This document shows, piece after piece, positions 21,053 to 46,014 of a stretch of 64,000 nt of DNA. Both the position numbers and the translations under genes were made by a program. This DNA comes from an uncultured Bacillota bacterium (GTDB taxonomy: Bacteria; Bacillota_I; Bacilli_A; RF39; UBA660). The stretch covers positions 9,892 through 73,891 of the forward strand of contig CAUAFL010000004.1 in NCBI GenBank assembly GCA_958428295.1, written 5' to 3'. The notes under the pieces were generated by a model that was given only the letters and a program-made list of their open reading frames with translations, had not been told where the DNA came from and did no database searches. The stretch's first letter is position 1. Each line of letters opens with the position of its first letter.

Positions 21053-22785
21053 TACATTACCTCCATAATTTCATTTTCAAAATAATATTCTGGTATAATA
21101 AATACTTCAATGTTATTATCTTCAAATATTTTTTCTTCCTCTGTTGTCAGTAGAATATCACTTGAGATATATACTTTTTCACACATATCTAGTTCTTCTT
21201 GATTGACACTAAATTTATCTAATTCAAATTCACTTAAATATAGTTTGATTTTGTTATTATCAATTTCAATACCATTTTCTAGTTGAATAAGGTTTTTAAC
21301 ATTTGTAAGCAAATTATTATGTAGATCTTCTTTTTCAGTATTAACTCTTGGTATATATGCACAACGATAATATTTTAAATTAGCAGAAATAGTATCACCC
21401 ACTGATATTTCAGAAGCATCTTTTCCAGTTATTACACCAGCTATTCTTGGATAGGTTACCAAATTGCAAATACTATTTTCATTATTAGTACATAGTATAA
21501 AATTTCTTTTCCCTTTATCTTCTTTATTTAGTTCTAAAACTGCTTGTGCAGTAGTTCCAGAACCTGCAAAAAAATCTAAAATCGTGGAATTTTTATAAGC
21601 CCGTGAAGAGGATAATATCTTTTTTATTAAAAATAGAGGTTTTGGATATGTAAAAATAGTATTAGAAACATATTTTTTTAGTTCGTTCCCACCATTTTGA
21701 TAATTAATTTCTTTTTCATTCCATATTGATTTTATTTTTGATAACTTTATATTGCCATCTTTTAATAAGTAATCTTTTCTAAAAATATCATAAAAGTCAC
21801 CTTGGCCATCTCTATTAACCTTTTTTCCAACTAATAGATTGCTATTTTGGATAAATTTTTCTTTGCTCCAAGTCCATCTCCCCTCTTCCCCACTAGGTCT
21901 TTTAGGAAGTGATTCAATACAAAAAATATCATCTTTTTCTAAACTTACTTTACCGGTTTGCGGATCTACATAAATAGGATAATATAAAAATGGTCGTTGT
22001 TCTCTTCGCCATTCTCCACCACGTTGTCTTAACCCAAGTAATCTATAATTACCATATTCGTCTTTTAAATTATATTCCTTAATATTTTCATCCGTTTTTT
22101 CAATGCCAAACTCAATGTTCAATTCAATATTTTTCGAATAGCACAAAAGATATTCATGTTCTATTGCAAAATATTTGCTTGCCTGTGAACCTCTAGGATT
22201 ACTTTGAATTATAAATTCTGCTTTGAAATTATCTTCACCGAATATATCATCACATAATAGTTTTAGTTGGGATTTTTCATTATCATCTATCGAAATGAAA
22301 ATTGTTCCAATTTCTGAGAGCAAATGTTTAGCTTTACTTAATCGTTTATACATAAATGATAACCACTTAGAATGTCGGTACCCATCAACTTTATCTATTA
22401 TAGAGTCATTATATGTAAAGTCTTTATTCCCTGTATTATAAGGTGGATCAATATATATGACATCAATTTTACCGGTGTGTGTTTTTTCTAGTAAATAAAG
22501 ACTATGAAGATTATCTCCCTCTAATAAGAAATTAAATTTATCACCAGTATTAGATATTATTTCTTTATCTTTTACTTCTTCAAAGGTAGGGATTTGGCTC
22601 TCTAACTCTTTATCAACACGTTCTTCATGTTCTTCCCAAATAAGGCCATACTTCTTTTTTGTTAATTCATTTTCTATCATTGATAAATTAGCTAGAGTTT
22701 CTTCATCTGCAATATTTTTTTTTATTTCATTTATTGTGTTTAACATTTTATCTCTTCTGATTTTCGATAGGTTAGCTGTTTCCAT
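21052..22785 (-). CDS. mod: Type III N6-adenine DNA methyltransferase, Mod subunit
   Basis: IYIDPPYNTG (motif IV) and DFFAGSGTTAQA (motif I) in the beta-class order. AAGGAG SD 8 nt before the ATG at 22785. Confidence 0.85.
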   Translation of the reverse strand: METANLSKIRRDKMLNTINEIKKNIADEETLANLSMIENELTKKKYGLIWEEHEERVDKELESQIPTFEEVKDKEIISNTGDKFNFLLEGDNLHSLYLLEKTHTGKIDVIYIDPPYNTGNKDFTYNDSIIDKVDGYRHSKWLSFMYKRLSKAKHLLSEIGTIFISIDDNEKSQLKLLCDDIFGEDNFKAEFIIQSNPRGSQASKYFAIEHEYLLCYSKNIELNIEFGIEKTDENIKEYNLKDEYGNYRLLGLRQRGGEWRREQRPFLYYPIYVDPQTGKVSLEKDDIFCIESLPKRPSGEEGRWTWSKEKFIQNSNLLVGKKVNRDGQGDFYDIFRKDYLLKDGNIKLSKIKSIWNEKEINYQNGGNELKKYVSNTIFTYPKPLFLIKKILSSSRAYKNSTILDFFAGSGTTAQAVLELNKEDKGKRNFILCTNNENSICNLVTYPRIAGVITGKDASEISVGDTISANLKYYRCAYIPRVNTEKEDLHNNLLTNVKNLIQLENGIEIDNNKIKLYLSEFELDKFSVNQEELDMCEKVYISSDILLTTEEEKIFEDNNIEVFIIPEYYFENEIMEVM

Positions 22786-23019
22786 TTTCACGACTCCTTA
22801 CACAAATAGCTATTCACTTAATTTATTTCATTGTCCAAGTAATTTCTTCATAAATATTATACTATATAATGATTTTATTTACCATAGTTCGATTCTAATA
22901 CTAAGGAAAAGAAACAAAAATGTAATATAAAAATGAAGCTTTAAAGAATTATCCTTAAATCATTGTATAAAAGTAAAATAAATTATATAATTATGTTAAG
23001 AGAATTGAGGTGTCAAAAT

Positions 23020-24171
23020 ATGAAACCATTTATTAAGTGGGCTGGAGGTAAAGAAAAAGAATTACCTATAATATTAGATAACATGCCTACAAGTTATGAG
23101 CGATATGTCGAGCCTTTTGTTGGCGGTGGAGCAGTATATTTTGCATTAAATAACCCCAATTCTATTATAAATGATAAATCTGATGAGCTTATAAATTTAT
23201 ATAAATACATCCAAAACGGTAATGAACAATTTTTAGCAAAACTTGATGAATTATTTTATAACTGGACTTTATTAGAGAAAGTAATAGAAAACAATTCAAA
23301 AGAATTGTTAGGTTTGTATAAAAATTATTGTAAAGAAACGATTAGAGATAAAAAATTGAAAATAAAATACAACGATATAATTTGTGAATTTGTAATCCAT
23401 CACTCAGATGAATTTAATGGAGTTTTAACTAATAATTTTAATATTAAAATAGATAATTTTATCCATGAGATACAAAAAAACTTACTATCAAAAATTAGTC
23501 GTATGTGTAAAATTTCTGAGACACGTGGGAGTTTAACTGATAGTAATATTCTTGAAAATATGGAATCGGCATTGAAAAGTGCGTTTTATATGCACTTTAG
23601 ATATTTATATAATAACAAAGACGAATTAAATATATCCCAAGAATTCGCTTCTGCAATGTTCTATTTTATAAGAGAATATTGTTATGCTTCAATGTTTAGA
23701 TATAATAAATTAGGAAAGTTTAATGTTCCTTATGGTGGTATAAGTTATAACAGAAAGGATTTTAATAAAAAAATTGATTATGTTAAATCTGAAACTATTA
23801 GAAAATATATGAGTAAAACTACAATTTACAATATGGACTTTGAAACTTTTTGTAACAATATTAATTTAACAGAAAAAGACTTTATCTTTTTAGATCCACC
23901 TTATGATACTGAGTTTTCAACTTATGCTAAAAATGATTTTAGTAAAAATGATCAAGTTAGACTGGCGAATTATTTAAAGACAACTAAAGCAAAGTTTATG
24001 TTGGTAATTAAAAATACAGATTTTATTTATAGTTTATATAACAGAAAAGGGTTTTATATTAAATCATTTGATAAAAAATATTTGGTTAGTTTTCAAAATA
24101 GAAATAACAAAGATGTTGAACATCTAATAATAACAAATTATGATATGGGGGAAAATAATAAATATGGATAA
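23020..24171 (+). CDS. Dam-like (D12 class) N6-adenine DNA methyltransferase
   Basis: Start moved to MKPFIKWAGGK. Motifs EPFVGGGAV and FLDPPY. GAGGTG SD. Confidence 0.85.
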   Translation: MKPFIKWAGGKEKELPIILDNMPTSYERYVEPFVGGGAVYFALNNPNSIINDKSDELINLYKYIQNGNEQFLAKLDELFYNWTLLEKVIENNSKELLGLYKNYCKETIRDKKLKIKYNDIICEFVIHHSDEFNGVLTNNFNIKIDNFIHEIQKNLLSKISRMCKISETRGSLTDSNILENMESALKSAFYMHFRYLYNNKDELNISQEFASAMFYFIREYCYASMFRYNKLGKFNVPYGGISYNRKDFNKKIDYVKSETIRKYMSKTTIYNMDFETFCNNINLTEKDFIFLDPPYDTEFSTYAKNDFSKNDQVRLANYLKTTKAKFMLVIKNTDFIYSLYNRKGFYIKSFDKKYLVSFQNRNNKDVEHLIITNYDMGENNKYG

Positions 24172-24997
24172 TGAAATTATAAGGAAGCAAAAAATAGAAG
24201 CAATTAAATTAATTGTAGATTCAAGTATTAAAAATTTTGCTGAGGGTTTCGAGTTAAGGTATACCTCAGAAGTAAATAATCCAAAGGGAGTGATAAATTC
24301 CAAAAAGAATAACGTTTTTATTGCACAGTTAGGTAAAGAATTTATGTTTTATTCTGCTTTTGTACGATCTTTTGATTCGTGTTTTGGTAAGGTCTTAGAA
24401 AATATTGGAAATTCCATAGCAAAGTTATCTTATGAAGTACGTGGAAGAATAGACTCTTATCTTTTGCCACAGCAAAGTCAACATATTGATTATCTACTTG
24501 CAGAATATGATAGACATGTGAAACCTTCTGTAAATGATTATTCTTCTTTTTCCTGGGTTAAACCAAGTAATGTCGAGAGTTATATAAAAAATCATGAAAC
24601 TGATAATTACTTTTATAATCCCGAAAAGAAAGAACATTATATTATAGAATTAAAAGCTGGAGGAGATTTAGATAATAAAAAGTCAAAAGCAGAAAAGACT
24701 GAATTATTACAAGAGTATTTTTTGCTTAAAAATAAAATTGTTGGAACAGATGAAAAAATAAGTATATTCTTAGGAACTGCTTATAATAAATTTGGCGAAG
24801 GAAATGAATGGAAACAAGAAAGGGTTCAGCAATATTTTTCTGATGAAGAATTGCTTATAGGTTACAACTATTGGAATTTTGTTTGTAATGATGATGAAGG
24901 CTTTAATATTGTTTTTGAGCAATATAAAATTAGTAGCCAATACATTAAAGATTCTTTAGAAAGAATTAAACAACTTTATTTTGCCGAAACAGAATAG
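24164..24997 (+). CDS. Putative Type II restriction endonuclease (family unresolved)
   Basis: Overlaps the methyltransferase stop by 8 nt. Possible PD-(D/E)xK core in ETDNYF...IIELKAGGDLDNKK. Assigned mostly from context. Confidence 0.5.
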   Translation: MDNEIIRKQKIEAIKLIVDSSIKNFAEGFELRYTSEVNNPKGVINSKKNNVFIAQLGKEFMFYSAFVRSFDSCFGKVLENIGNSIAKLSYEVRGRIDSYLLPQQSQHIDYLLAEYDRHVKPSVNDYSSFSWVKPSNVESYIKNHETDNYFYNPEKKEHYIIELKAGGDLDNKKSKAEKTELLQEYFLLKNKIVGTDEKISIFLGTAYNKFGEGNEWKQERVQQYFSDEELLIGYNYWNFVCNDDEGFNIVFEQYKISSQYIKDSLERIKQLYFAETE

Positions 24998-25027
24998 TCA
25001 ATATTAATATCTAACACTGTTCTTTTT

Positions 25028-25062
25028 GGGAGTAGATTTTGAATGCTGGCTAGGACATAAAA
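25028..25062. repeat. 35-nt conserved motif, copy 1
   Basis: GGGAGTAGATTTTGAATGCTGGCTAGGACATAAAA. 32 of 35 positions are identical to 29042-29076. Confidence 0.8.
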
Positions 25063-25094
25063 TTGTAACTATAATGTTCAGGGTCTTTCTAATA

Positions 25095-26072
25095 CTATTT
25101 TAAATCTTTATAATGTACCATATATGTTTTTATATTATTAGTATCATTTTCATTTATTTCAAAAATTCTACCACCTCTCAAATCATCTGTTCCATAAGGG
25201 CTATAACCAGCACAGGCATCTAAACACATTTTAACATTGCAAAAAGTTCCTTCAAAACAATCGTTATGACTATGACCACATGCAATACAAATGATGTCTT
25301 TTCTTTGAAGTATAGTAGAAAACAATCCAGAATTAAGCATTCCTATTTTCATAACTTCCTTTGTACTTCCTGTACACTTGGTTACAATTGGATTATCTAC
25401 GATATATTGAAATTCCCATGCTGGTATATGCATAAATAAGATTCCATTTATTCGATTTCCACAATAATCTTCTATTTCTTTTGAACTATTCCAATACCAC
25501 ATTAATTGTTCAAAATGTACAATATCCCATTTATCTGACATTGAGGGCATATTCATTAATTTTATATTTTTGTCTATATCTATATTAGAATGTCTTATTT
25601 CATTATTTGAATCCATTCCCCAAATATTAAAAGCAATATCATCATTTTTTGAATTTTTAATAGGTAATACAAAATTAGTAGTTCCATAAATATTTTCAGT
25701 ATGTTTTGAAATACAATATTTAAAATTTTCATACATTTTTGTTTTTGTAATATCATCAATTTCAATATCATGGTCATGATTTCCAAAGATATGTGCCCAT
25801 GGAATTTTTCGTTTTTCCATTGGTTGAGTAAAAATTTCTAAATATTTTTTTATTTCTTCTTCTGTCTTTAATATCGTTCCATCACAATTATCTCCACCTA
25901 AAATAATAAAATTAGGTTGAGTTTTTTCAATTAGTTTATCCATATATTCTAATGTTTTCACATCATAGCTTAATGTTTCTTGAATATCTGACATCATTAA
26001 TATTTTGAATTTCCCATTTTCGTTAAATTTTAATTCATGTTTGGTATATAAATTTGTATCTAAATTATTCAT
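25095..26072 (-). CDS. Calcineurin-like metallophosphoesterase
   Basis: MMSDIQ, GGDNCD, GNHDHD and GHSHND motifs. Confidence 0.8.
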   Translation of the reverse strand: MNNLDTNLYTKHELKFNENGKFKILMMSDIQETLSYDVKTLEYMDKLIEKTQPNFIILGGDNCDGTILKTEEEIKKYLEIFTQPMEKRKIPWAHIFGNHDHDIEIDDITKTKMYENFKYCISKHTENIYGTTNFVLPIKNSKNDDIAFNIWGMDSNNEIRHSNIDIDKNIKLMNMPSMSDKWDIVHFEQLMWYWNSSKEIEDYCGNRINGILFMHIPAWEFQYIVDNPIVTKCTGSTKEVMKIGMLNSGLFSTILQRKDIICIACGHSHNDCFEGTFCNVKMCLDACAGYSPYGTDDLRGGRIFEINENDTNNIKTYMVHYKDLK

Positions 26073-26151
26073 TTACTTCCCCCATTATGTACTAAATAGT
26101 TAAAATATAGTTTTATTATAGTATATTATAACATAATTTTAATAGCTAAAA

Positions 26152-26926
26152 TTATTTATTTTCTTGTAACCACTTATAAACATCATCTTCAGTAAGTTCT
26201 CCATGTTTTAGTTTTGTGATTTTTTCTTTGGCTTGTTTTTTCCAAGTTTCAAATTCTGTCTTTAATTTTTTATCATCTTTGTTTTTATTTACTATGCCAA
26301 ATTTTTGTTGATATGTTTTTCTGTATTCTGTATATGCTGATTTTTCTTGTAATCTTTTGTTATAAGAAAGTATTGCTCCTTGTTCTCTGCAAGTTTTTCC
26401 GTTTTCTTTTGGATAATCACAATATATTTCATCTAATCTTGAGTTTGGTATAAAATACATACCACAGTTTTGACATTTTTTATTGGGTAGTTATCTGTTT
26501 TTGATAATTCTTCTAATATAGCATAGCAAATATTTGATATATCATTACTTTTATGAGTATTTACCATTGATATAAGCATACCTTCTTCTTTTAGTTTCTT
26601 TAGAAGGTCAATATCTGCTGAATTTCCTAGTTCTTCATATTTATTAGAATAGTTATCTTGTATTACTTCATCATTTTTTATATACGAATATAGTTTGCCT
26701 TTCCTTTTTATTAGATATACTGCATATCTTTGTGAATGTGTAAATGAATTTAGGTCTTCTATTTCATTTATATTATATATGTAATTAACGGCATCTGTTA
26801 TTTGTTCTTGTATGTATATAAGTTGTTCTTTTAGATTGTCATATATCTTTTTTGTTTCTTTTAGATATGTTTCATCATCTTCATATTTTCCTTTTAGTTC
26901 AAATTTATAGTCTTTATCTATATCTT
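26152..26926 (-). pseudogene. Frameshifted and 5'-truncated gene of unknown function (Cys-containing, transposon-associated type)
   Basis: The 102-aa ORF (26152-26460) continues upstream as ...KKCQNCG MYFIPNS, but an in-frame stop sits at 26491-26493. Another frame stays open from about 26494 to 26926 (for example NEIEDLNSFTHSQRYAVYLIKRKGKLYSY). Confidence 0.5.
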
Positions 26927-27623
<697 letters not shown>

Positions 27624-27758
27624 CACATACAAGTTACGAACTAGATTCTCTTTCTAAAGATATTATACAAGAATTCTTATTAAAATTCAATGGGAGTATA
27701 GACAGTTTTGTTATTTTATAATAAAATTTTAATTAGATTATAACTTTTGGAGGAGTAA

Positions 27759-28376
27759 ATGAAAATAGGTATAGATATTGATGGTGTTTTAAATTCACAA
27801 TATAATTTTTGTATAGATTATGGAACAAAGTTTTGTAATGAACTTGGTAAGTATAAATTAGAAAATATAAATGTAATAGATACTACAGATATGTTTTTAT
27901 GGGGAGAAGATATAGCACATCAGTTTTGGAATAAATATAGAAAAGATTTAGCTATTATTTTACCAGCAAAGAAGTATTCTGCAGAAGTGATAAAAAGATT
28001 AAAAAATGAAGGTAATGAAATACATATAATTACAGCAAGAAGAAATAATGACGAATGGTTTTCTAATTCTCTAAAGAAAGATGTAGAAAATATCACAAAA
28101 AAGTGGTTAAAAGATAATAATATCTATTATGATAAAATTATTTTTGATGTAAAACACAAAGGAAAGTATTGCAAAAATAATTGTATAGATGTTATGATCG
28201 AAGACGACCCAAATAATTTAAGAAAATTAATTGGTAATACTAATATAATTGTATTCGATTATCCATATAACAGAAATTTTGAATTTAATAATATAACAAG
28301 AGCATATAGTTGGTATGATATATACTATAAAATTAAAAATATAAAGGAGAACAAAAATGATATTAGCAATAATTGA
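27759..28376 (+). CDS. HAD-superfamily hydrolase, 5'(3')-deoxyribonucleotidase-like
   Basis: The N-terminal MKIGIDIDGVLN carries the DxDGV nucleophile motif. IHIITAR and IEDDPNN are plausible motifs II to IV. GGAGGAG SD. Confidence 0.6.
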   Translation: MKIGIDIDGVLNSQYNFCIDYGTKFCNELGKYKLENINVIDTTDMFLWGEDIAHQFWNKYRKDLAIILPAKKYSAEVIKRLKNEGNEIHIITARRNNDEWFSNSLKKDVENITKKWLKDNNIYYDKIIFDVKHKGKYCKNNCIDVMIEDDPNNLRKLIGNTNIIVFDYPYNRNFEFNNITRAYSWYDIYYKIKNIKENKNDISNN

Positions 28377-29007
28377 GAGAATTGAAAATGTAAAGGCAGA
28401 AGAACCTTTTAACTGCAGATATTATTTAACTAGACATTATAAAGAGATATTTGATAAATTAAATATTTTATTATTCCCAATTGTTTCAGATAAAAACTTA
28501 GAAAAAGTATGTGAGATTTGTGATGGACTTATTGTAACGGGTAGTTGTATTGATATACCACCACATTATTATAATGAAAAACCTATTCTAGAAAAAAATT
28601 ATGATATTGATGAATTTAGATTAGATAAAGCAGCCATTGAATTATTTTCTAATGCTAATAAACCTATTTTAGGAATATGTGGAGGTCTTCAGTCTATAAA
28701 TGTTTATTTTGGTGGAACCTTAAATCAAAAAGTAAATAATCACGATTTAAAAGATAAATTACATAAAGTAAATATTAGTGAAAATACATTTTTACGAGAT
28801 GTTTATAATAAAGACATAAATATAAATTCATTTCATAAACAATCTATTAAGGATACTGCAAATGGATTCACCATTTCAGCTATAGCTGAAGATGGTACTA
28901 TTGAAGCAATAGAAAAAAACAATATTGTTGCAGTTCAATGGCATCCTGAGCAAATGGGAGATTTATTATTTTTTAAAAATTTTATAAATACATTTTTTAA
29001 AAAATAA
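28357..29007 (+). CDS. Class I glutamine amidotransferase-like, peptidase C26 family
   Basis: GICGGLQ and VQWHPE motifs. AAGGAG SD. Overlaps the upstream gene by 20 nt. Confidence 0.75.
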   Translation: MILAIIERIENVKAEEPFNCRYYLTRHYKEIFDKLNILLFPIVSDKNLEKVCEICDGLIVTGSCIDIPPHYYNEKPILEKNYDIDEFRLDKAAIELFSNANKPILGICGGLQSINVYFGGTLNQKVNNHDLKDKLHKVNISENTFLRDVYNKDININSFHKQSIKDTANGFTISAIAEDGTIEAIEKNNIVAVQWHPEQMGDLLFFKNFINTFFKK

Positions 29008-29041
29008 AGGGTATGGGATTTCCCATAAAAAGAAAACGTGC

Positions 29042-29076
29042 GGGAGTAGGTTTTCAGTGCTGGCTAGGACATAAAA
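29042..29076. repeat. 35-nt conserved motif, copy 2
   Basis: GGGAGTAGGTTTTCAGTGCTGGCTAGGACATAAAA, between convergent genes as in copy 1. Confidence 0.8.
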
Positions 29077-29088
29077 GCAGGTTTGTCC

Positions 29089-29451
29089 TCACACATTTTC
29101 TGTATAAATCAGTTCCTTTAAGATGATTCCTTCTGCTATATTTTTATAATTATTCATCAGTTTTACCCATTCAAGTTGATTGATTTCTTTATTCTTTTCA
29201 GATAGTAATTTATCTGAATTTTTATACTGCTCCATTAAAATATTTAACTTGGTTTCTGCTTCATTACTAACTGAAACAAGATGATTTGTTAGTTCATTTG
29301 TCATTAAAAGTGTTATATAAAGTGCTTTATTATTTTCTTTTAGAAAGCGTAATCTTAAGTATCCATACTTGTTAATTTTTCCATAATTTTGTATTTTTAT
29401 TGTTAAGTTAGGTAATAAATAATCACCAACTTTAGTATAATTTAACTCCAT
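29089..29451 (-). CDS. tnpV: TnpV-like transposon protein
   Basis: YTKVGDYLLPNL...INKYGYLRLRFLKENNKALYITLLMTNELTNHL...NQLEWVKLMNN...AEGIILKELIY follows the TnpV pattern of Tn4451-type elements as I recall it. Confidence 0.65.
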   Translation of the reverse strand: MELNYTKVGDYLLPNLTIKIQNYGKINKYGYLRLRFLKENNKALYITLLMTNELTNHLVSVSNEAETKLNILMEQYKNSDKLLSEKNKEINQLEWVKLMNNYKNIAEGIILKELIYTENV

Positions 29452-29454
29452 TTT

Positions 29455-32078
<2,624 letters not shown>

Positions 32079-32221
32079 GGCGTAGATATCTACAACTTTT
32101 TCACTTCTTAACGATTTGATATATAAAATATCAATCACTAATGATATTTTATCACAAATTTGCCATTATGTCTCGAAAAATGTGTGATTTTATAGTAAAA
32201 TATCATATAGGAGTTGATAAT

Positions 32222-33118
32222 ATGCAAAATTATTATATTGATCTTGGTTCATCAACAATAAAGGTTTATTGTTATGAAAATAAGTTAAGACTTATAGAAG
32301 AACATTCAATTTATTTTAAAAATGACTTTGATGCAGAAAAAGGTATAAGCGAAAGTAATTTAAAAGAACTATGTGATTATTTCGAAGAAATAAAGGATAA
32401 ATATGATTTAAAGTATTATAATACACAGATTTTTGTTACTGGTATTTTTAGAAACTTAATACAAGAAAGAAAACAAGATTTAGTAAAATTATTTAATGAT
32501 AAGTTTGACCTGAATTTTAACATTATTAGTCATGGTATTGAAAACTATTATTTAGCAAAAGCTATGGAAAATGATTACAATAATAAGAAAGTTTTAATAA
32601 TTAATATGGGTGGTAAAACTACTGAATTAGTAACTTTTGTAGGAACTAAAATAACTGATACTAAAAATTTAACCATTGGTGTTGCTGATTTATTAAATAA
32701 CTTTAGTAATGTTAATGAAAAATATAGTGGCGATACTGTCGAAGAAATGGAAAAATTCGTAGCTGAAAGACTATTTGATATTGAATTAGATAAAGATTAT
32801 GATTGTGCAATATTTACAGGTGGCGAAGAAAGATTTGAATTATTAACAGGATTTAATTTAGTAGATAATACTTTATTTGATGATAATATTCATAAATATA
32901 TGTTAAGTTTAGAAGATTATATTAAAGGTACTGAAAAAGTATTTAATGATATTTCACTTGAAGAATTATATGCTTTAATGCCTTTAAATCCTAAATGGAT
33001 GGATGGTGCAAGAAGTGGTGCAATCATACCTTTAGTTTTATTTAAAATGGCAAATGTAAAATGGATTATTCCATCTGATTTGAATTTAATAAATGGTGTA
33101 ATTAATGATTTAAAATAG
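32222..33118 (+). CDS. ASKHA-fold protein, Ppx/GppA phosphatase-like
   Basis: Start moved to MQNYYIDLGSSTIKVY (phosphate-1 motif). Also VTGIFRN, ISHGIENYYLAKA, INMGGKTTELV (phosphate-2) and LTIGVADL. AGGAG SD. Confidence 0.65.
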   Translation: MQNYYIDLGSSTIKVYCYENKLRLIEEHSIYFKNDFDAEKGISESNLKELCDYFEEIKDKYDLKYYNTQIFVTGIFRNLIQERKQDLVKLFNDKFDLNFNIISHGIENYYLAKAMENDYNNKKVLIINMGGKTTELVTFVGTKITDTKNLTIGVADLLNNFSNVNEKYSGDTVEEMEKFVAERLFDIELDKDYDCAIFTGGEERFELLTGFNLVDNTLFDDNIHKYMLSLEDYIKGTEKVFNDISLEELYALMPLNPKWMDGARSGAIIPLVLFKMANVKWIIPSDLNLINGVINDLK

Positions 33119-33139
33119 ATTTATCTGAGGGGGTAAGGA

Positions 33140-34513
33140 ATGATTAAGAATGTAATATCTGTAATAGATGGTGAAGCTGGAAGTTGTGGTAAAGCTAAAG
33201 TAATTGGTGAAATAGCAACTGATGAATCTATTAAGCTGGGAGCTTCTGTTACGAATTGTATGCCAAATGCAGGACATACTTTTGTTGATGAAAAAGGAAT
33301 TGCTACTATTTTTAGAAACATACCTGTATCATCAGTTAATCCAGATACTGAATTATTTATTGGACCAGGATCTGCAATTGATATGGAAGTATTTAAAGAA
33401 GAGTATGAGCAAGTAAGAAAATATTTAGGAGATAGAAAAATATATGTTCATGAAATGGTTCCTTTGATTGATGAAAGACACAAACAATATGAAAGAGAAC
33501 ATATTAAAAGCGGTTCAACATTTAAAGGATGTGGAGCAGTCACTCAAGAAAAGGTTATCAGAGATAAAAAACTAGAATTTTTCAAATTGTTTGAAAATGC
33601 TGTTGTTTGTTCTAATAATGAATGGCTAGAAAGATTATATAGTCATCTTGATAATCCATCTGAATATGTAATATTAGAAGGTGCTCAAGGTTGTGATTTA
33701 GATTTAAATCATAGTGGAAATTATCCTTTTGTTACGAGTAGAAATGTCTCAACTTCTCAATTACTAGCTGATTCAGGAATATCACCAGAAAGATTACTTC
33801 AAACGATTATGGTAATTCGACCTTTCCCAATAAGAATAAGCAATATTACTAAGGCAGGAGAATTTATTTATACAGGTGGTTATGGCAAAGGTGAAGAACT
33901 TACATGGACACAAATTAATTTAGCATCTATGTATGGAAATTATCCTTGTAATGGTGATGTAGAATGTTTACCTTATAATATTAATTTAAATCGTGTAAAA
34001 AAATTAATTAGTCAGTGTCCTGAAATATATTTAAAACAATTATTTGGTAATGATTTTAGAAATATAAAAGTTAGTGATTTAAAGATATTACAAATATTGG
34101 AACTTGAAAGATTAGTATATAAATCAAAAGGATTTAGTGACTATGAATCTCATTTTTTAGAATCAGGAATGTTTGATAAAGATTTCCCAAATAATACTAT
34201 ATTTGATCAATCTGAACAAACATCTGTGACTAAAATGGAGAGAAGAGTATTTGACTTAGATATTTCTAAACTTAAAACTAATTGCCGTATTAATACTCCA
34301 TCAAGGTTATATTTAAATTTCTTTCAACATTTAGGATTAGACTATAAAGGCGAAATAGGTAACTATAATGATTATTATTTTAATAGATATTTAAGAGAAT
34401 ATTTTAGTTGGCTTGAAGGTGAAACTAATGTTGAAATATCTGCATTAGGAACTGGTGCTAGAAATGGCGAGCGAATACTTAAGAAAAGTTTAATAAAAGA
34501 AATAAAAAAGTAA
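33140..34513 (+). CDS. Divergent adenylosuccinate synthetase (PurA/PurZ) family protein
   Basis: VIDGEAGSCGKAKV aligns with the GDEGKGK P-loop, MPNAGHTFV with NAGHT, LEGAQGCDLDLNHSGNYPFVTS with EGAQGxxLDxDHGTYPxVTS, and SVTKMERRVFDLD with TTGRxRRxGWxD. There is a long insertion in the C-terminal half. Confidence 0.7.
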   Translation: MIKNVISVIDGEAGSCGKAKVIGEIATDESIKLGASVTNCMPNAGHTFVDEKGIATIFRNIPVSSVNPDTELFIGPGSAIDMEVFKEEYEQVRKYLGDRKIYVHEMVPLIDERHKQYEREHIKSGSTFKGCGAVTQEKVIRDKKLEFFKLFENAVVCSNNEWLERLYSHLDNPSEYVILEGAQGCDLDLNHSGNYPFVTSRNVSTSQLLADSGISPERLLQTIMVIRPFPIRISNITKAGEFIYTGGYGKGEELTWTQINLASMYGNYPCNGDVECLPYNINLNRVKKLISQCPEIYLKQLFGNDFRNIKVSDLKILQILELERLVYKSKGFSDYESHFLESGMFDKDFPNNTIFDQSEQTSVTKMERRVFDLDISKLKTNCRINTPSRLYLNFFQHLGLDYKGEIGNYNDYYFNRYLREYFSWLEGETNVEISALGTGARNGERILKKSLIKEIKK

Positions 34514-34564
34514 TTTTATAAATTATTTGAAGCATAATATATAATGTAGTATTATTTCCATGGT

Positions 34565-34593
34565 TTGACAATGTCTATAAAATATGCTACAAT
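34565..34593 (+). promoter_or_regulatory. Near-consensus sigma-A promoter
   Basis: TTGACA, 17 nt, TACAAT. Confidence 0.6.
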
Positions 34594-34599
34594 TTAATT

Positions 34600-34669
34600 A
34601 GTTCAGTTGCCAAGATGCAATTAGAGCACTAAGACCGTTATGATTTTTCATAACGGTCTTTGCTTTTTA
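34600..34669 (+). ncRNA. Candidate small RNA of about 70 nt (promoter-to-terminator unit)
   Basis: The only thing between the promoter at 34565-34593 and the strong terminator at 34631-34669 is about 30 nt with no start codon or SD. Confidence 0.35.
34631..34669. terminator. Rho-independent terminator (usable from both sides)
   Basis: AAGACCGTTATGA / TCATAACGGTCTT 13-bp stem followed by TGCTTTTT. Also lies just past the stop of the minus-strand 157-aa gene. Confidence 0.8.
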
Positions 34670-35140
34670 TAATTCTACTTTAAAATTATTATAATCTTTC
34701 AATTTGGAATTTAAATATCTGTTACTAGATATATAAAATCCTGTTATAAATAGCATATACTCCACTTTGTCTTTAATAATTATAATATATTTTTCCTTTT
34801 CTAGTAACAAGTGATATGCACCATCTTTAAAATATATCTTAATTTCATTTTTGTGTGGACCATTATTATTGAACTCATCAATAATTGCTTTGGGCCATCT
34901 TATTCTTGAACATCTTTCAAAGTCTGGTGATTTTCTTTCATGCCCTAAAATCAAATGATTAAATCCATCGATTTTATCATTTAGTAAAGGCTTTTTAGTT
35001 ACTTCTAGTCTTTTATTTAAAAATGTATTTTTATGATCTACAAAATCACTTATGAATATTTGATATATCATATCTTCATATTCTTTATATTTTGAAAAAT
35101 CGTTACATTCTATTAATTCTGGTAACCAATCACTTTTCAT
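34667..35140 (-). CDS. Hypothetical protein, partner of the DUF3800 gene
   Basis: 157 aa. The start shares one base with the upstream stop (TAATG). No family recognised. Confidence 0.5.
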   Translation of the reverse strand: MKSDWLPELIECNDFSKYKEYEDMIYQIFISDFVDHKNTFLNKRLEVTKKPLLNDKIDGFNHLILGHERKSPDFERCSRIRWPKAIIDEFNNNGPHKNEIKIYFKDGAYHLLLEKEKYIIIIKDKVEYMLFITGFYISSNRYLNSKLKDYNNFKVEL

Positions 35141-35832
35141 TATTTAGTAGGGTCCCATATGAATATATTAAATTTATCTTTTTTATAAGGAGTATTTTGT
35201 TTCAATCCATAAATGGATTTTTGTAAAATTGTATTTATAATCTTTAATTTACTTTGATTTGTATTTAAATTTCTGTAATAATATGTTATTGCGCCAATCA
35301 TTACATCTGTGAGTTGGAGGATAGTAGATTCATATGATCTTATTGGTTGCATTTTTAAAATAGTTTTTTCGTTGTCATCTACTATTTTTAATCTTAAATA
35401 ATATAAAACACTTTGAAAATTTTGGTAAGAATATGAATCTTTAATATCTGCATATATATTATATGAATCGGGCTTATTAAATATATATTTTAACATATCA
35501 TAATACATTTTGTGGTACCATTGATCATGTGTTTGATGGAATGTATCATGATCTAATATTTTTTTATCACATACAATTGCTCTAAATTTTAAATCATCTT
35601 CAATAAAAAAGTATTTTATTAGTTCTTCATAAAAATCCTCTTTACTTTTTGAAACTTTGGTCCATTTTAGTTCACAAAATTTTTTGATTTTATGCTTTTC
35701 TTTTAAATCTAAAATATATTTAGTGATTTCTTTTACTTTATTTTTAGGGCAATATATTGCTCCAATTACCATATAATCTCCGTCTTTATCTAGCATATAA
35801 CAACTTTCATCGCAATAAACATTATATTCCAT
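35140..35832 (-). CDS. DUF3800-family protein
   Basis: The N-terminal YNVYCDESCY resembles the DUF3800 I-x-DESG start. QLTDVMIGAI lies near the C-terminus. GGAAGTGA SD before the ATG at 35832. Confidence 0.6.
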   Translation of the reverse strand: MEYNVYCDESCYMLDKDGDYMVIGAIYCPKNKVKEITKYILDLKEKHKIKKFCELKWTKVSKSKEDFYEELIKYFFIEDDLKFRAIVCDKKILDHDTFHQTHDQWYHKMYYDMLKYIFNKPDSYNIYADIKDSYSYQNFQSVLYYLRLKIVDDNEKTILKMQPIRSYESTILQLTDVMIGAITYYYRNLNTNQSKLKIINTILQKSIYGLKQNTPYKKDKFNIFIWDPTK

Positions 35833-35887
35833 CAAATATCACTTCCTTTTTAATAATTATAGCAAATTGATTATAAAAAGTTAATAG

Positions 35888-37270
35888 CTAGCGCTCAATA
35901 TCATCTTTTTCTATTACTGACCTATTTTTATTATTTTCATTTCTATTGTCTTGAAGAAGATTGAAATCTTCATCATCTAATGCCCCATGTTCATGTAATT
36001 CTTTAGCAAATTCCATGTATTTTTCTATATCTTTATTTCTATAAATTTTATCCATAAGGAATTTAACAAGATTGTAAATTAAATTTTTAAGATGTTCAAG
36101 TGCAGATTTTAGTGAATGATTTTCTTCTTTTAAATCATTAATTTCATTATTTTTTAACTTGATTTTATCTTTTAAATTATCAACTTCAGAATTGAGTCCT
36201 TCATTGTTTTTTAATAATAATCTAATTCGATCATGATTGCTAAGGAGTTCACTTTCCACTTCTTTTAATGTAACAGATAATTCTTGAATACTTTGATATT
36301 CAGCAATAGTTTTATCAACTAAATCAATAAAAACAATAGCTTTATCTCTATCAACTACATCTAAAACTAATTGACTTTTAATTAAACCTTTTGATTTTAA
36401 ATTTTCGAGCATATCTCTAATTTCTTTTGTACTATTTTTTAAATTATCAGTTTTGTCTTTTGCTTTATTCAAGCTGTTTTGATGAATCTCAATAGACTTT
36501 TTCATCCTTTGATAGTTTTCCATTTCTGATATGTGATAATCACGATTTCGACCTTTTAATTTAGGTTTTAATTTATAATTAGTATGATATTCTTTATTGA
36601 AAGATTCCATACAATGAACTCTCATTTTGTCTTGAATTTTTGTTAATGATTCTTTAGTAAAGACATCAGACTTTCCAACTTGTTTAGACATACCATACTT
36701 GTTTTTAGATTTAATTGGAACACCAATTATATGAAGATGTGGGCTTGTTTCATCATAATGAATGATAGCACTTGCTATCTTAAAATCAGGAACTAATTCT
36801 TCTAAACTTTTAACTTGTTCTTCGAATACATTAGTCATTTTCTTTTTATATTCCATATCTTTTGTATTCCAAAACTCCATATCACCAAGTTCAATAATTA
36901 TCTCACAAGCTAAATCCTTTTTAGTGTTATTGCTAACATGAGTGAAATAATCTTTTATCTTTCTATCATCACGAATTTGTTTATTATTGTATTCAATTTT
37001 TGCTTCTTCAAACTCATCCTTATATAATTTTTTAACATCATTAACGATTGAATTAGTTCCTCTAATAATTTCGATATCATACTCTCTATCATCATACTTT
37101 CTACAATTATGATTGTCACATTTTGATAGTCCTGCTGCATTTTGGATAGCATTATTACTATTAGATGTTGTACCACTTAAATTAGATTTAGCACTTGCTT
37201 TACTACTGTTTTTCTTGTTTTTATCATTGCTTAAATGGAAAGAGTAACCTAAACTAGGTATATAAATCAC
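35888..37270 (-). CDS. mob: MobV-family relaxase (Mob/Pre plasmid recombination enzyme, TnpZ-like)
   Basis: HYDETSPHLHIIGVPI is the HxDE...PHxH motif. Long coiled-coil C-terminus. The start codon is uncertain (a GTG very close to the SD). Confidence 0.85.
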   Translation of the reverse strand: MIYIPSLGYSFHLSNDKNKKNSSKASAKSNLSGTTSNSNNAIQNAAGLSKCDNHNCRKYDDREYDIEIIRGTNSIVNDVKKLYKDEFEEAKIEYNNKQIRDDRKIKDYFTHVSNNTKKDLACEIIIELGDMEFWNTKDMEYKKKMTNVFEEQVKSLEELVPDFKIASAIIHYDETSPHLHIIGVPIKSKNKYGMSKQVGKSDVFTKESLTKIQDKMRVHCMESFNKEYHTNYKLKPKLKGRNRDYHISEMENYQRMKKSIEIHQNSLNKAKDKTDNLKNSTKEIRDMLENLKSKGLIKSQLVLDVVDRDKAIVFIDLVDKTIAEYQSIQELSVTLKEVESELLSNHDRIRLLLKNNEGLNSEVDNLKDKIKLKNNEINDLKEENHSLKSALEHLKNLIYNLVKFLMDKIYRNKDIEKYMEFAKELHEHGALDDEDFNLLQDNRNENNKNRSVIEKDDIER

Positions 37271-37390
37271 ATCTCCTTTCTTTGTGTTTTTTTAGCTATA
37301 TTTTGTTTTGACAAAATATTTAACCCCCTAGGAATTTTGTCATACTAACAAAATACGGGGGCTAAGGCTCGCCTTAGAATCCAGAAGGAA

Positions 37391-39445
<2,055 letters not shown>

Positions 39446-39516
39446 CTATGGGATAACTCTTTATCCACTATATTAATTATACAACTTTTGCCTTAAAATG
39501 TCCATCCTGTGAAAGT

Positions 39517-39792
39517 CTATTTAATAGTGCTTAAGTAATCTTCTAATTCTGATATTTGTATCTTATTCGCTAAATTTCTAATATAAATATCAGTAGAATA
39601 ATTAAATACAAGAAATGTAATACCTTTAATGATAACTCTATGAGGTTCTATAAAGTTTAAATTAGATTTATCAATTCTTCTAATGCTACCATTAATAAAT
39701 ATGGGTTTGGTTTTACAAAACTGACAGATAAACTCTAATCTTTGCTTTAAAGACTTCTCAAAAGGTATCTCTTGTGTGATAAACTGAATCAT
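39517..39792 (-). CDS. Recombinase-associated small protein, copy C (divergent)
   Basis: Start moved to MIQFITQE (91 aa). FCKTKPIFINGSIRRI...IEPHRVIIKGITFLVFN...IRNLANKIQISELEDYL aligns with copies A and B. Confidence 0.6.
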   Translation of the reverse strand: MIQFITQEIPFEKSLKQRLEFICQFCKTKPIFINGSIRRIDKSNLNFIEPHRVIIKGITFLVFNYSTDIYIRNLANKIQISELEDYLSTIK

Positions 39793-39898
39793 AAACACCA
39801 TCCTTCCTTTAGGATGATTTCTTTGTAATAACAAAAAAACCAATCTTTTGATTGATTTCTATATATCAATGTTCGAAAAATTCGAACAGATTCGTCAA

Positions 39899-39972
39899 TG
39901 GAGCGGATGAGGAGAATCGAACTCCCGTAGTTAGCTTGGAAGGCTAAGGTTCTACCATTAAACTACATCCGC
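39899..39972 (-). tRNA. tRNA-Gly (anticodon UCC)
   Basis: Acceptor GCGGATG/CATCCGC, anticodon arm TTAGC-CTTCCAA-GCTAA, GTTCGATTC T-loop and encoded CCA. Confidence 0.9.
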
Positions 39973-40269: not shown

Positions 40270-42879
40270 TTAATACTTGTCATTAATCTCAATATATTCT
40301 GCTAATTTTTTTATAAACTCCTGATTATTTATTGCCTCTTTCGCTTTTATTCTTATCACTGGAACATAAATAGCATTAAAAGCAGCATCTTTATAACTAT
40401 CTCTAACCTTTTGTATTTGTTTAAAATGATCTTTCCCATCAAGTTCTATAATAATTTTTAATTTACCAGTTCTGGTATCAAAAATAGAAAAGTCGGCATG
40501 TGCACCATTTCTTATATATTCTTTAATTTTAGGATTGCTATTTAGGAAAGACTCATTTAAAACTAACTCTGTTAAGAATACTTTGGCACGGCATATATAA
40601 GGAGTTTCCTTTAAGATATTATTTATAAAATGGTGAGTAACCTCTTCGTATTCATTATCATATAATTTTGTTTTTTTATAATATGGAATTTTTTTATAAA
40701 GATAATCATACCAACATGAGGTTTCATCATCGATCTTTTTCCCATAGATTTTAATATAATCAATTAAATGGTTTATTTCTATTGCATAACAACTATTTTT
40801 TTGAAAGTATTTTTTATCTGTAATGAGAATAAATTTCTGTTTGGCACGTGAGACTGCTACGTTAACAAGTTCTGAAGTAAATAAGTTATGATTTCCTTTA
40901 AGATGATTATTGCAAGTCTTTAAGTCATTTAAAACAGTAGAAAAATAGACCTTTTTTGCGCCTTTTCCTTGAAACGTATGAATAGTCCCTGCTCGATTTT
41001 CCTCAAATCGCTTTTTTAATTGCATTGACTGGGCTTTAAAGGGCGTAATTACAAAATAATCGTCTTTTTTATTCACTAATCCTTCAATGGCAAAACACTC
41101 TCTATCGTTTAAAAACGACCCATTTTTACTTTCTGCCCCCTTATACTTATCCACATCGACTATTTCGATAGAAGAAGAATTAGCTTCTGTATAAATTTTT
41201 AATTGGCTAGCATAATAAAATTTATTACAAAAATTAATAATATTATAATCACATCGATAATGTTCTTCTAATGTTTTCTCTGGTGGATCAAAAACATTCT
41301 TAATAGAATTTAAAAAAGTATTGTTGTTATATCTATATTCATCAGGAATGTCAGTTTCAACCTTTAAATTTGTGATAGCACTAAGTTGTTTCTCGTCGCC
41401 AACAACAACAAGCTTCTTGGCGGTATAAAGTAGAGGAAGACCTGTAATAACATCGCATTGGGATGCTTCATCAATTATGATAACGTCTATTTTTTTATTA
41501 TTTTTAATAATATCTTTAAAATTTGATAGAAAAGCATCAGCAGTTGTCAAAATTAAGGGATAAACATTGAAAGCCATTTCTAGTAAATCATTATTCTTTA
41601 CCTCTGTTAATCCAGAAGACATTTTTGTTTTTAAATAACCTTTAAATGCTTTCATAGATACTTCTATATATTGTTGATAAATTTCTTTCACTTGCCTTTG
41701 TTTTTCTTTCAGCTTTCTTTTTAACAAAAGAGCTTCTTTGTCTGCTATTTCTTTTTTAAGATACACTTCCTTTAAAAGTTGAGAAATTGCATAAAACTTT
41801 TTATTTGCATCATCCTCATTAATACAATAATAATATCTTATTATCAATTTCTCAAAAAAATTGAACTTATGTTTTTTAGAATATGCGAACAGTTTTGCTA
41901 ATCTATTTTTAGAAACATTCTTTTCACAAATAATTTTCATCTCATTTTCAGTAAGTAATTCTTTAAAATTATATAGTTCCTGTTCTTTATCCATAAATTT
42001 CTTTTGCATTTTCAAATCAACTATTAAATTTTTAATACTGACAAGTTCATCTATTTCATTTTCTAAATTTTGTAATTTGTTTTGAAGTATTTGGAGTTTA
42101 TTAAAGTCTTCATCAAAAGCTGAAATTTCTTTAAGCGTTTTTCGCAATTTTGTGATTTTAGCAGGCAATTCCTGCTGTAAAGGGTACATAAAATCTTTAG
42201 TACGACCAAATCTTAAGAAAAATTCTGGTAAGGAAGTTTTTTGAAATTCTTCTATTATATTATCAACAGCCGAATTATTTTTTGAAACAATTACAACATT
42301 TTTATTCTGCATAATAAAATTTGCAAGAAGACTCAAAATAGTCGTTGTCTTCCCAGTACCAGGTGGTCCCTGAATAATAGATATATCATTATTTAAAGCG
42401 TTTTTTATGGCCATTCTCTGTGAAAGATTAGAATTGCTCAATAAGATAATTTTGTTATTAGAATATATTTTTTTATTATCCTTCTGATTTTTTAAATATC
42501 TTACTAAAAGATTATCTGAACTTTGTGTATAAATAGAATCTAACATACCTTTAAACATCTTTTGCTTAAAATCATAATTGGAGTCAGTTTCTAATTTGTC
42601 CACACATTTTTGGTAGTAAGCTAAATATTTGCCCACATTAAAGGGTAAGCCTAATTTTTTTGATTTAAATGAAATTTCATCATTATGATTTGCAAACTCT
42701 ACTTTACGAATATTAGAAATATAAATACTAGATTCCTTCTTAGAATTTATAAAAGTATAATACAGTTTGTCATGATAGTACTTTGTAACTATAATAATCA
42801 TATTTTTATCTTTGCAAGTAGTAATTTTCAAAGGTATATGTTTTGTATGTGATTCATCAAAATACTCTATCATAGGCAC
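40270..42879 (-). CDS. SF1 (Upf1/Dna2-like, AAA_11/AAA_12) helicase fused to a C-terminal DUF2726/Vsr-like nuclease domain
   Basis: GPPGTGKTT, IIIDEASQ, VVVGDEKQL, HYRCDYNIINF, TIHTFQGKGAKKVY and VNVAVSRAK. C-terminus HADFSIFD...IIIELDGKDH...RDSYKDAAFNAIYVPVIRI. Confidence 0.8.
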   Translation of the reverse strand: MPMIEYFDESHTKHIPLKITTCKDKNMIIIVTKYYHDKLYYTFINSKKESSIYISNIRKVEFANHNDEISFKSKKLGLPFNVGKYLAYYQKCVDKLETDSNYDFKQKMFKGMLDSIYTQSSDNLLVRYLKNQKDNKKIYSNNKIILLSNSNLSQRMAIKNALNNDISIIQGPPGTGKTTTILSLLANFIMQNKNVVIVSKNNSAVDNIIEEFQKTSLPEFFLRFGRTKDFMYPLQQELPAKITKLRKTLKEISAFDEDFNKLQILQNKLQNLENEIDELVSIKNLIVDLKMQKKFMDKEQELYNFKELLTENEMKIICEKNVSKNRLAKLFAYSKKHKFNFFEKLIIRYYYCINEDDANKKFYAISQLLKEVYLKKEIADKEALLLKRKLKEKQRQVKEIYQQYIEVSMKAFKGYLKTKMSSGLTEVKNNDLLEMAFNVYPLILTTADAFLSNFKDIIKNNKKIDVIIIDEASQCDVITGLPLLYTAKKLVVVGDEKQLSAITNLKVETDIPDEYRYNNNTFLNSIKNVFDPPEKTLEEHYRCDYNIINFCNKFYYASQLKIYTEANSSSIEIVDVDKYKGAESKNGSFLNDRECFAIEGLVNKKDDYFVITPFKAQSMQLKKRFEENRAGTIHTFQGKGAKKVYFSTVLNDLKTCNNHLKGNHNLFTSELVNVAVSRAKQKFILITDKKYFQKNSCYAIEINHLIDYIKIYGKKIDDETSCWYDYLYKKIPYYKKTKLYDNEYEEVTHHFINNILKETPYICRAKVFLTELVLNESFLNSNPKIKEYIRNGAHADFSIFDTRTGKLKIIIELDGKDHFKQIQKVRDSYKDAAFNAIYVPVIRIKAKEAINNQEFIKKLAEYIEINDKY

Positions 42880-45670: not shown

Positions 45671-46014
45671 TTTAAAATGACTCCTTTCTTTTATTTAAAT
45701 TATTATATGAAAAATAGTCCATTGCTACAAGCAATGCTTATTAACATTCAAAACTTATATTAATAAAATGGCGTGGTGATATGGAAATAAATAGTGAACC
45801 CTTAACTGAAATGAAAGCACAATTATCTAATGATGTATCAATAATTAAACAAGCGTATTATAATACATATCTACTAAATAGGATTCAAGGTATGATCAAA
45901 AGGAGTTTTTTATATCCTGTTTTCAATTACTGTTCAGTATAAATTTCATTAAAAAAGAGCTTTTATTTGCCAGAATGTTTATTTTTCTATATAATAATCA
46001 AGAGGTTTGGTAAA

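Follow-up and report, generated by a model that had tools for sequence, protein, structure and literature searches.

PurZ is the phage enzyme that starts the synthesis of the unusual DNA base 2-aminoadenine, and it belongs to the same superfamily as the cellular adenylosuccinate synthetase (AdSS), PurA. In the structure from phage S-2L, residues S23, T273 and Q308 are the PurZ-specific ones that touch the substrates, and Arg303 of PurA contacts the 2'-OH of inosine monophosphate (IMP) (residue roles from PMC8342488). An Asp-to-Ser exchange at the catalytic position discriminates between the two enzymes: in a 2026 survey Asp13, described as essential, was present in 99% of true PurA and Ser in 147 of 147 phage PurZ, and the PurZ group also took in archaeal cellular sequences with Ser or Gly at this position (PMC12884076). 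In the literature searched, accounts of PurZ and of the 2-aminoadenine pathway come from phages, the exception being four archaeal sequences that group with PurZ. The present analysis concerns a stretch of 64,000 nucleotides from an uncultured Bacillota bacterium (contig CAUAFL010000004.1, positions 9,892 to 73,891; the whole stretch is hereafter the window), in which a mobilisable element carries two adjacent genes, K and Z, coding for a predicted phosphohydrolase of the Ppx/GppA family and a PurZ-class protein. The pair and its landmarks are arranged as follows.

32222–33118, plus strand: gene K, a diverged two-domain Ppx/GppA-family (ASKHA) phosphohydrolase of 298 residues, as predicted.
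33140–34513, plus strand: gene Z, a 457-residue PurZ-class member of the AdSS superfamily, Ser-type, short and 'archaeal-like', with an ATP-type base pocket.
33170–33199, plus strand: P-loop of Z (G11–K20, GEAGSCGKAK), with Ser15 at the position of the catalytic Asp13 of PurA.
33923–34204, plus strand: insertion of Z, about 93 residues (approximately 262–355), between the ELTW helix and the SEQT(S/T)VTK block.
34631–34660, plus strand: terminator-like hairpin with a 13-bp stem at the end of the K–Z operon, between the converging genes Z and PDC-M04B.

K–Z is a real, conserved and undescribed two-gene module, and what is new in it relative to PurZ and PurA is the partner and the cellular host. 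The literature search found no paper on the K–Z pair, on PurZ together with a Ppx/GppA protein, on a bacterial PurZ family or on AdSS-like defence genes, in agreement with a preliminary description of this region, whose author knew of no system of this composition. The most favoured reading, with a probability of roughly 0.45, is that K and Z constitute an operon for a short nucleotide-conversion pathway. The two genes lie on the same strand, each with its own Shine-Dalgarno sequence, as had been noted before; the spacer between them is 21 nt rather than the 22 nt then given. K starts at the ATG at 32222, with GGAG 8 nt upstream, and stops at the TAG at 33116–33118. A longer open reading frame for K, from 32141, was ruled out because all K homologues are 296–301 residues long. 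Z starts at the ATG at 33140, and the spacer holds a strong Shine-Dalgarno sequence, GAGGGGGTAAGGA. Two terminator-like sites were found against 0.4 expected.

Z belongs to the AdSS superfamily by its match to the Pfam family Adenylsucc_synt (88 bits, cutoff 27). The best NCBIfam model is that of PurZ (NF038379, 171.8 bits); the archaeal-type PurA model NF003295 gives 146 bits against a cutoff of 368 and the canonical purA model TIGR00184 only 98 bits against 395.6. Z also matches PHROG 1211, the '2-aminooxy adenylosuccinate synthetase' family, and its best sequence matches in the PDB are PurZ of S-2L (7odx) and of phiVC8 (6fm1), followed by PurA of Pyrococcus. Residues were compared by aligning Z with PurZ of phiVC8, a homologue from a Bacillus phage, metagenomic relatives and PurA of E. 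coli. In this alignment G14-S15-C16-G17-K18 of Z falls on G-D13-E-G-K of PurA, and the block T361-S-V-T-K-M-E-R-R-V-F has the standard PurZ form TTVTKxxRRxF. Thr361 corresponds to Thr273 of S-2L PurZ, and Asn393, Phe394 and Gln396 to its Asn305, Phe306 and Gln308; the equivalents of S23, T273 and Q308 are therefore Ser15, Thr361 and Gln396. The sequence L-N393-F-F-Q396 stands in place of the GTP-specific TKLD, leaving Z without an (N/T)KxD motif, and Met366 occupies the position of PurA Arg303. Core residues of PurA are kept, namely Asn43, His46, Arg141, Gln183 and Arg368. Of the four features by which canonical PurA was tested, Z has neither Asp13, nor (N/T)KxD, nor Arg303, nor a score above the TIGR00184 cutoff.

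All the motifs quoted in the preliminary description (GEAGSCGKAK, NAGHT, EGAQGCDLDLNHSGNYPFVTS and SVTKMERRVFDLD) are present in Z, and its view that Z is no ordinary purA is borne out. Two of its interpretations have to be revised: the P-loop, taken there as aberrant, is of the PurZ type, and the supposedly degenerated TTGRxRRxGW block has the conserved form T(T/S)VTKxxRR(V/I)F of PurZ and short AdSS. The likeness to PurZ, raised there as an analogy, proved to be stronger than its author realised, since the PurZ-defining Ser and the other PurZ-specific contacts are found in Z itself.

The signature is stable across the family. Ser15 is present in 74 of 74 full-length species-level homologues, in which NAGH, Thr361, Arg368, Asn393 and Phe394 are likewise invariant; the pocket positions Thr361, Asn393, Phe394 and Gln396 are 93–100% conserved. 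Among the nearest 50%-cluster representatives in a library of 1.84 billion proteins, 129 of the 131 that could be scored are Ser-type. Because the active-site columns are 100% conserved across the 74 homologues, Z is, as judged from sequence, a working enzyme under selection and a member of the PurZ sequence group. One protein about 52% identical to Z (P0246, 372 residues, on a 1.3-kb contig) has Asp in its P-loop (GDCGKGK) and lacks the TTVTK block, which may represent a reversion or a different specificity inside the bacterial subgroup.

The long insertion in the C-terminal half of Z, already remarked on before and now placed at about residues 262–355, is found in 74 of 74 homologues with a length of 84–98 residues. 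It is predicted to be helical. In an AlphaFold2 (AF2) model built from an alignment of 41 sequences at ≥76% identity, the predicted local distance difference test (pLDDT) reaches 77–92 over residues 280–350, the rest of the model being poor (pLDDT 53.5 for the model). The insertion is missing from relatives about 45–51% identical to Z (P0392, P0243 and P0245).

The K protein scores 36.1 bits on Pfam Ppx-GppA (PF02541; cutoff 27), above the gathering threshold, and 47.5 bits on the exopolyphosphatase equivalog TIGR03706, far below the cutoff of 307. Alignment to Aquifex aeolicus PPX/GPPA places a phosphate-1 motif (DLGSST), a candidate catalytic Glu107 and a phosphate-2 motif (INMGGKTTE). Glu107 and the phosphate-2 Glu135 are kept, Asn128 at the position of the phosphate-2 Asp is invariant in the homologues, and the motifs are invariant among homologues about 70–75% identical. 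With the AF2 model of K (pLDDT 76.7), the top 38 Foldseek matches were all Ppx/GppA or PPX, the best being A. aeolicus 1t6c (E 4e-18); after the Ppx/GppA, GppA and PPX matches came nucleoside triphosphate diphosphohydrolases (NTPDases), and no sugar kinase was among the Foldseek matches. K is, on the evidence of this predicted structure, a Ppx/GppA-type ASKHA protein and not a sugar kinase. The earlier assignment to a Ppx/GppA-like arrangement is confirmed by the Pfam match and by the ranking of the Foldseek matches.

Searches returned 824 Z-like proteins, essentially one 50%-identity cluster plus a handful about 40–50% identical, and 1048 K-like proteins. In a scan of one genome per GTDB species, Z was found in 95 species at 52–91% identity, all of them gut metagenome-assembled genomes (MAGs) labelled uncultured 'Bacilli', 'Tenericutes' or 'Mycoplasmatota'; the K and Z families are confined to uncultured low-GC gut Bacilli. 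In 39 of 81 Z loci, K precedes Z at a distance of 20–30 nt. The surroundings are otherwise not conserved: there are 818 neighbour clusters, and the next commonest after K is found in 13 loci. K also adjoins a Z relative of 393 residues, about 46% identical and lacking the insertion (P0392, loci L101/L102), with a K about 70% identical. Synteny elsewhere, proposed in the preliminary description as a check by gene-neighbourhood census, is thus found both in these 39 loci and beside this relative; of its further proviso on K, the sugar-kinase identity fell away and the independent distribution largely held, 31 of 38 K loci being without Z. Loci with K beside Z are concentrated in the crown of the Z tree, whereas the basal branches lack this adjacency. 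Solitary K is found in several differing contexts, for example enolase-K-aspS. Chromosomal gene orders at Z loci include metK-Z-prfB-tilS-ftsH-parA-parB and K-Z-pflB-pflA, the neighbours having been named by reading the sequences by eye, supplemented by further results.

Some loci without K have a different nucleotide phosphohydrolase gene immediately upstream of Z, which speaks for a coupling of K and Z: a NUDIX gene (L061, L072 and L024), an NT5C-type HAD gene (L084) or a gene with HD, HD_4 and AAA_28 domains (L005). A K-NUDIX-Z triad was considered and rejected: the NUDIX genes beside Z and those beside K share only the Nudix box. In locus L067 (6282–8886) an S-adenosylmethionine (SAM) riboswitch is followed by metK and then, after about 25 nt, by Z; L068 and L071 share this gene order, and in such loci Z may be co-transcribed with metK. 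No riboswitch was found upstream of K or Z, either in the window or in eight related loci. One MAG (CANRBQ01) contains two Z copies (L092 and L096), 87–88% identical to that of the window, one of them with only a 40-residue K remnant upstream. A trio consisting of an ATPase of about 620 residues (DUF87), a 232-residue protein and an AraC/GyrI-like regulator recurs near K and/or Z in otherwise different loci (L035, L038, L032, L028, L169 and L170). UDG-superfamily genes lie directly downstream of Z in L052, L066 and L069 and near Z or its relatives in L033, L041, L044, L094, L095, L101 and L190, about ten of 83 loci in total; the association is loose, commoner than expected by chance, with loci that are not phylogenetically independent. 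The sequence retrieved, 2.1 Mb in all with about 1.6 Mb from bacterial loci, contained neither canonical purA nor purB; as only about one match was expected by chance, this does not decide the housekeeping question.

In IMG/VR, the nearest viral relatives of Z are at most 39% identical; one Z relative, 37–41% identical, lies on a phage-like contig. Among plasmids there was no DNA-level match to K–Z and no homologue of K. Short Ser-type PurA homologues (GSEGKG) do occur on proteobacterial plasmids, in Sinorhizobium medicae pMl5 (L188, 5986–8048) and in Burkholderia thailandensis (L189, 5440–7155), and similar matches lie on replicons of Rhizobium, Agrobacterium and Ralstonia. PurZ, named in the preliminary description as the only well-known non-housekeeping PurA homologue, is consequently not the only one. 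Toxin-antitoxin, transposase, nuclease or helicase genes surround both the L188 and the L189 gene; one of the two overlaps a gene that weakly resembles dCTP deaminase (E 0.04), and the other has an N-terminal extension weakly resembling P-loop kinases (E 0.6).

In the proposed pathway, Z would phosphorylate O6 of a 2-amino-6-oxopurine nucleoside monophosphate, most likely deoxyguanosine monophosphate (dGMP) and possibly GMP, using ATP and not GTP, as its sequence suggests. The phosphorylated intermediate would then be condensed with aspartate to N6-succino-2-amino(deoxy)adenylate, which the cellular adenylosuccinate lyase may convert to a nucleotide of 2-aminoadenine (the Z-base). K, to judge from the operon context and by analogy with the phage PurZ partners MazZ, DatZ and DUF550, which have an equivalent task, could trim a guanine nucleoside polyphosphate, either (d)GTP/(d)GDP or (p)ppGpp, and in this way supply Z or regulate it. 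The native hosts of the module would be one clade of uncultured gut Bacilli of low GC content, and in the window it would have been captured as element cargo. The role of K as supplier or regulator is suggested because the operon persists, the two genes are mobilised jointly and phage PurZ has analogous partners; it is weakened because K is often solitary and carries Asn128.

Several other points weigh against this pathway. The 171.8 bits of Z on NF038379 fall short of the curated cutoff of 300. Z has Ala where both PurZ and PurA carry an aromatic residue beside purine C2, and its 93-residue insertion lies near the aspartate loop, so that the substrate of Z may differ. In K, Asn128 replaces the metal-binding Asp of the phosphate-2 motif in the alignment to A. 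aeolicus PPX/GPPA. K is better conserved than Z at the same divergence (about 70% against about 46% identity) and is accompanied by Z in only seven of 38 informative loci, standing without it in the other 31. Many Z loci resemble core chromosome, which is also consistent with a housekeeping AdSS. K and the 457-residue Z family were not found in IMG/VR viral contigs, no DatZ-, MazZ- or DpoZ-like gene lies beside K–Z, and no DatZ homologue was found. Finally, a Z-cluster has toxic effects when expressed in E. coli (PMC8342488), and stable vertical inheritance is hard to square with this.

The pair is carried by element 1, one of three integrative elements in tandem at a tRNA gene.

39899–39972, minus strand: tRNA-Gly(TCC), identified by ARAGORN; its 3' end, 39899–39908, is the attachment (att) site of the element array.
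32069–32078, plus strand: left att core TGGAGCGAAT, which duplicates the 3' end of tRNA-Gly and forms the junction of element 2 and element 1.
32079–39898, no strand: element 1, a 7.8-kb integrative mobilisable element.
34667–35835, minus strand: PDC-M04 candidate defence pair, with B at 34667–35140 (157 residues) and A at 35140–35835 (DUF3800, Pfam).
35888–37270, minus strand: MobV (Mob_Pre) relaxase, Pfam PF01076 at 62.3 bits (cutoff 25.5).
37391–39430, minus strand: large serine recombinase of element 1, found by phmmer.
27624–32068: element 2, with an NT5C-like nucleotidase, a Peptidase_C26 amidotransferase, TnpV, a recombinase and a 90-residue gene.

The window contains three exact matches (27614, 32069 and 39899; 0.1 expected by chance) to TGGAGCGRRT, the core of the tRNA-Gly 3' end, and these copies mark a tandem array of integrative elements at one tRNA gene (27614–39972). 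Each element has its cargo at the left end and its recombinase at the right. Element 1 reads K, Z, PDC-M04B, PDC-M04A, MobV, large serine recombinase and a 108-residue protein, and it has the recombinase, the relaxase and the direct att repeats (32069 and 39899) that mark an integrative mobilisable element. The PADLOC matches of PDC-M04 are strong (B, E 7e-37; A, E 1e-75). The relaxase scores 39 bits on the NCBIfam MobV model, under its cutoff, and the recombinase matches the catalytic domain of TP901-1 integrase (E 1e-17), YokA of SPbeta and TnpX in phmmer. K–Z is flanked on the left by a large serine recombinase and a 90-residue gene, and on the right by PDC-M04, MobV and the second large serine recombinase. 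K–Z is genuine element cargo in the window, as the preliminary description held, and att repeats bound the element that carries it. The junction of the core followed by K recurs in L019 and L039, and L051 shows the end of one element abutting the start of the next. L007 holds the same element without PDC-M04, which is therefore regarded as a later addition. K and Z are mobilised jointly on several elements (the window, L007, L019, L039 and L042), a minority arrangement accounting for about five of some 85 loci.

The cargo of element 2 (27759–29007), in the slot equivalent to that of K–Z, comprises overlapping genes for an NT5C-type 5'(3')-deoxynucleotidase and a Peptidase_C26 or class-I glutamine amidotransferase; the pair has no PADLOC match. 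Further NT5C-like genes are found immediately upstream of Z (L084) and in the vicinity of K (L149, L151 and L179). To the left of element 2 is an array remnant with a truncated recombinase and a 90-residue gene. The region 18851–26460 encodes two restriction-modification (R-M) systems, one of type III with a ResIII helicase and an N6_N4 methylase and one of type II with a D12 methylase and a TdeIII endonuclease, as well as a pair made up of Metallophos and DUF6076 genes. To judge from a 35-nt repeat at 25028–25062 that resembles 29042–29076, a degraded third element may have carried the type II system as its cargo; this system probably belongs to the left remnant. Immediately past the tRNA-Gly site, 40270–42879 encodes an 869-residue superfamily-1 helicase (AAA_11/AAA_12) fused to DUF2726, and at 45967–47550 a single open reading frame fuses MutY-like HhH-GPD, NUDIX_4 and UDG-superfamily domains. 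A DDE_Tnp_1 transposase of an IS element lies near the window start (910–2307). The remaining flanks are core chromosome of a spore former, with an Era-like GTPase, YqfD, a class II aminoacyl-tRNA synthetase and ValRS.

The serious and main rival to a PurZ-type pathway, somewhat unlikely in our estimate, is that Z is the lineage's own working AdSS, converting IMP and Asp to adenylosuccinate. A short phage- or archaeal-type enzyme would have displaced canonical PurA in reduced-genome gut Bacilli, K would be an unrelated housekeeping Ppx/GppA protein kept adjacent by inherited gene order, and the mobile copy would be a hitch-hiker. Such a role is consistent with at least 95 species representatives at 52–91% identity and a tree that looks vertical, with the setting of Z among core genes in both of the chromosomal orders given above, with the mostly solitary state of K (as in enolase-K-aspS) and with the archaeal cellular sequences carrying Ser or Gly in the PurZ group (PMC12884076). 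It is hard to reconcile with the essential Asp13 of 99% of true PurA (PMC12884076) when Ser and the other PurZ-specific contacts are found in all 74 Z homologues. The evolutionary rate of Z is moreover higher than that of K, an unusual trait in a core enzyme of purine metabolism; one MAG has two copies (L092 and L096); the pair has repeatedly been captured on mobilisable elements; and the adjacency of K and Z persists amid otherwise shuffled surroundings.

An anti-phage module, or one for another inter-element conflict, is more doubtful still. Upon infection dGTP and dGMP would be drained into succinyl-aminodeoxyadenylate, with nucleotide depletion as the result, and dZTP might also be made and poison the replicating phage DNA; nucleotide depletion is an established defence mechanism (bioRxiv 10.1101/2021.04.26.441389). 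The window itself suggests such a role, as K–Z occupies the cargo slot of a tRNA-Gly element beside PDC-M04, the other slots of the array hold a type II R-M system and the NT5C and amidotransferase pair, and a type III R-M system adjoins. The plasmid Ser-type homologues of Sinorhizobium and Burkholderia, which lie among toxin-antitoxin, nuclease and helicase genes with a dCTP-deaminase-like overlap and a P-loop-kinase-like fusion, point the same way, although these two similarities are weak (E 0.04 and 0.6). Neither K nor Z has a match in PADLOC-DB 2.0.0, however, and of the 150 de-replicated genes lying no more than two genes away from Z, few match PADLOC and no PADLOC family matches more than three; enrichment for defence islands is weak. 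Most Z loci are ordinary chromosome, the mode of inheritance seems vertical, and neither a sensor nor a regulator is obvious. The context in the window and the plasmid homologues are compatible with a defence role, the general locus census is not, and the defence, anti-defence or signalling function proposed earlier finds no support as a general role. Most improbable of all is a partial replacement of adenine by 2-aminoadenine in bacterial or element DNA, as self-marking or protection from restriction. The PurZ-class signature of Z, the place of the element among R-M systems and the UDG-superfamily genes recurrent near Z (L052, L066 and L069 directly downstream; about ten loci including L101 and L190) would accord with it; the UDG association is, however, loose and drawn from phylogenetically dependent loci, no Z-selective polymerase or dATPase was found, and a Z-cluster is toxic in E. 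coli (PMC8342488).

To return to the nucleotide-conversion pathway, its fullest form is unlikely: uncultured gut Bacilli would run a PurZ-type pathway with a dedicated trimming partner of Ppx/GppA fold and make Z-base nucleotides themselves. If this is true, the Z-base could serve cells in poisoning or starving invading phages or in partly modifying their own or mobile-element DNA, and the plasmid Ser-type PurA homologues of Proteobacteria would fall into the same unexplored class. Roughly a hundred bacterial species conserve this PurZ-signature enzyme, which has a partner of a new kind and is sometimes carried by a mobilisable element, and two outcomes can follow. Should PurZ chemistry extend to cells, the finding bears on nucleotide-based immunity, on DNA modification and on the origin of phage PurZ; should a Ser-type enzyme serve as an ordinary AdSS, the current sequence rule separating PurZ from PurA is overturned.

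The mobilisable transposons Tn4451 and Tn4453 encode the large serine recombinase TnpX, TnpV and the Mob/Pre relaxase TnpZ. The array elements have in common with them a large serine recombinase, a Mob_Pre relaxase and a cargo of small size. A homologue of TnpV is encoded by element 2, and the recombinase of element 1 matches TnpX. Different from these transposons, the array elements are site-specific for the tRNA-Gly 3' end, where they accumulate in tandem, and element 1 carries K–Z and PDC-M04 rather than an antibiotic-resistance gene.

K shares with the Ppx/GppA phosphatases (A. aeolicus PPX/GPPA, E. coli GppA and H. pylori PPX/GppA) the two-domain ASKHA fold, the phosphate-1 motif, the catalytic Glu and a Gly-rich phosphate-2 loop with a terminal Glu. 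It differs in its low identity of about 19%, in the Asn that replaces the phosphate-2 Asp and in having no C-terminal domains.

Z resembles the archaeal-type short AdSS, such as Pyrococcus horikoshii PurA (PDB 2d7u and 5k7x), in length class and core, and the Pyrococcus sequence scores comparably to the PurZ matches (E 1.5e-25). The distinction here is the Ser of Z, drawn from the published Asp13/Ser rule as applied and not from the P. horikoshii residue itself. PurZ0 of Actinobacteria phages (PDB 7vf6), which acts with DutZ and DmtZ, likewise combines a Ser-type PurA homologue with enzymes that trim deoxynucleoside triphosphates; it is phage-encoded, its partners are others, and its score with Z is 83 bits against 98 bits for S-2L PurZ. 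The phage PurZ enzymes of S-2L and phiVC8, with their partners MazZ, DatZ and DUF550, are only 31–39% identical to Z. Bacteria and the mobilisable elements they carry, instead of phages, encode Z, and its partner has a Ppx/GppA fold rather than a MazG-like or HD one, with no DatZ or DpoZ. Z also has the 93-residue insertion, a Cys after the Ser (GSCGK) and an Ala for the Tyr or Phe before the P-loop Gly. What the two share is the superfamily, the short architecture, the Ser in place of Asp13, the TTVTKxxRR block, the N-F-x-Q adenine pocket and a nucleotide phosphohydrolase encoded alongside.

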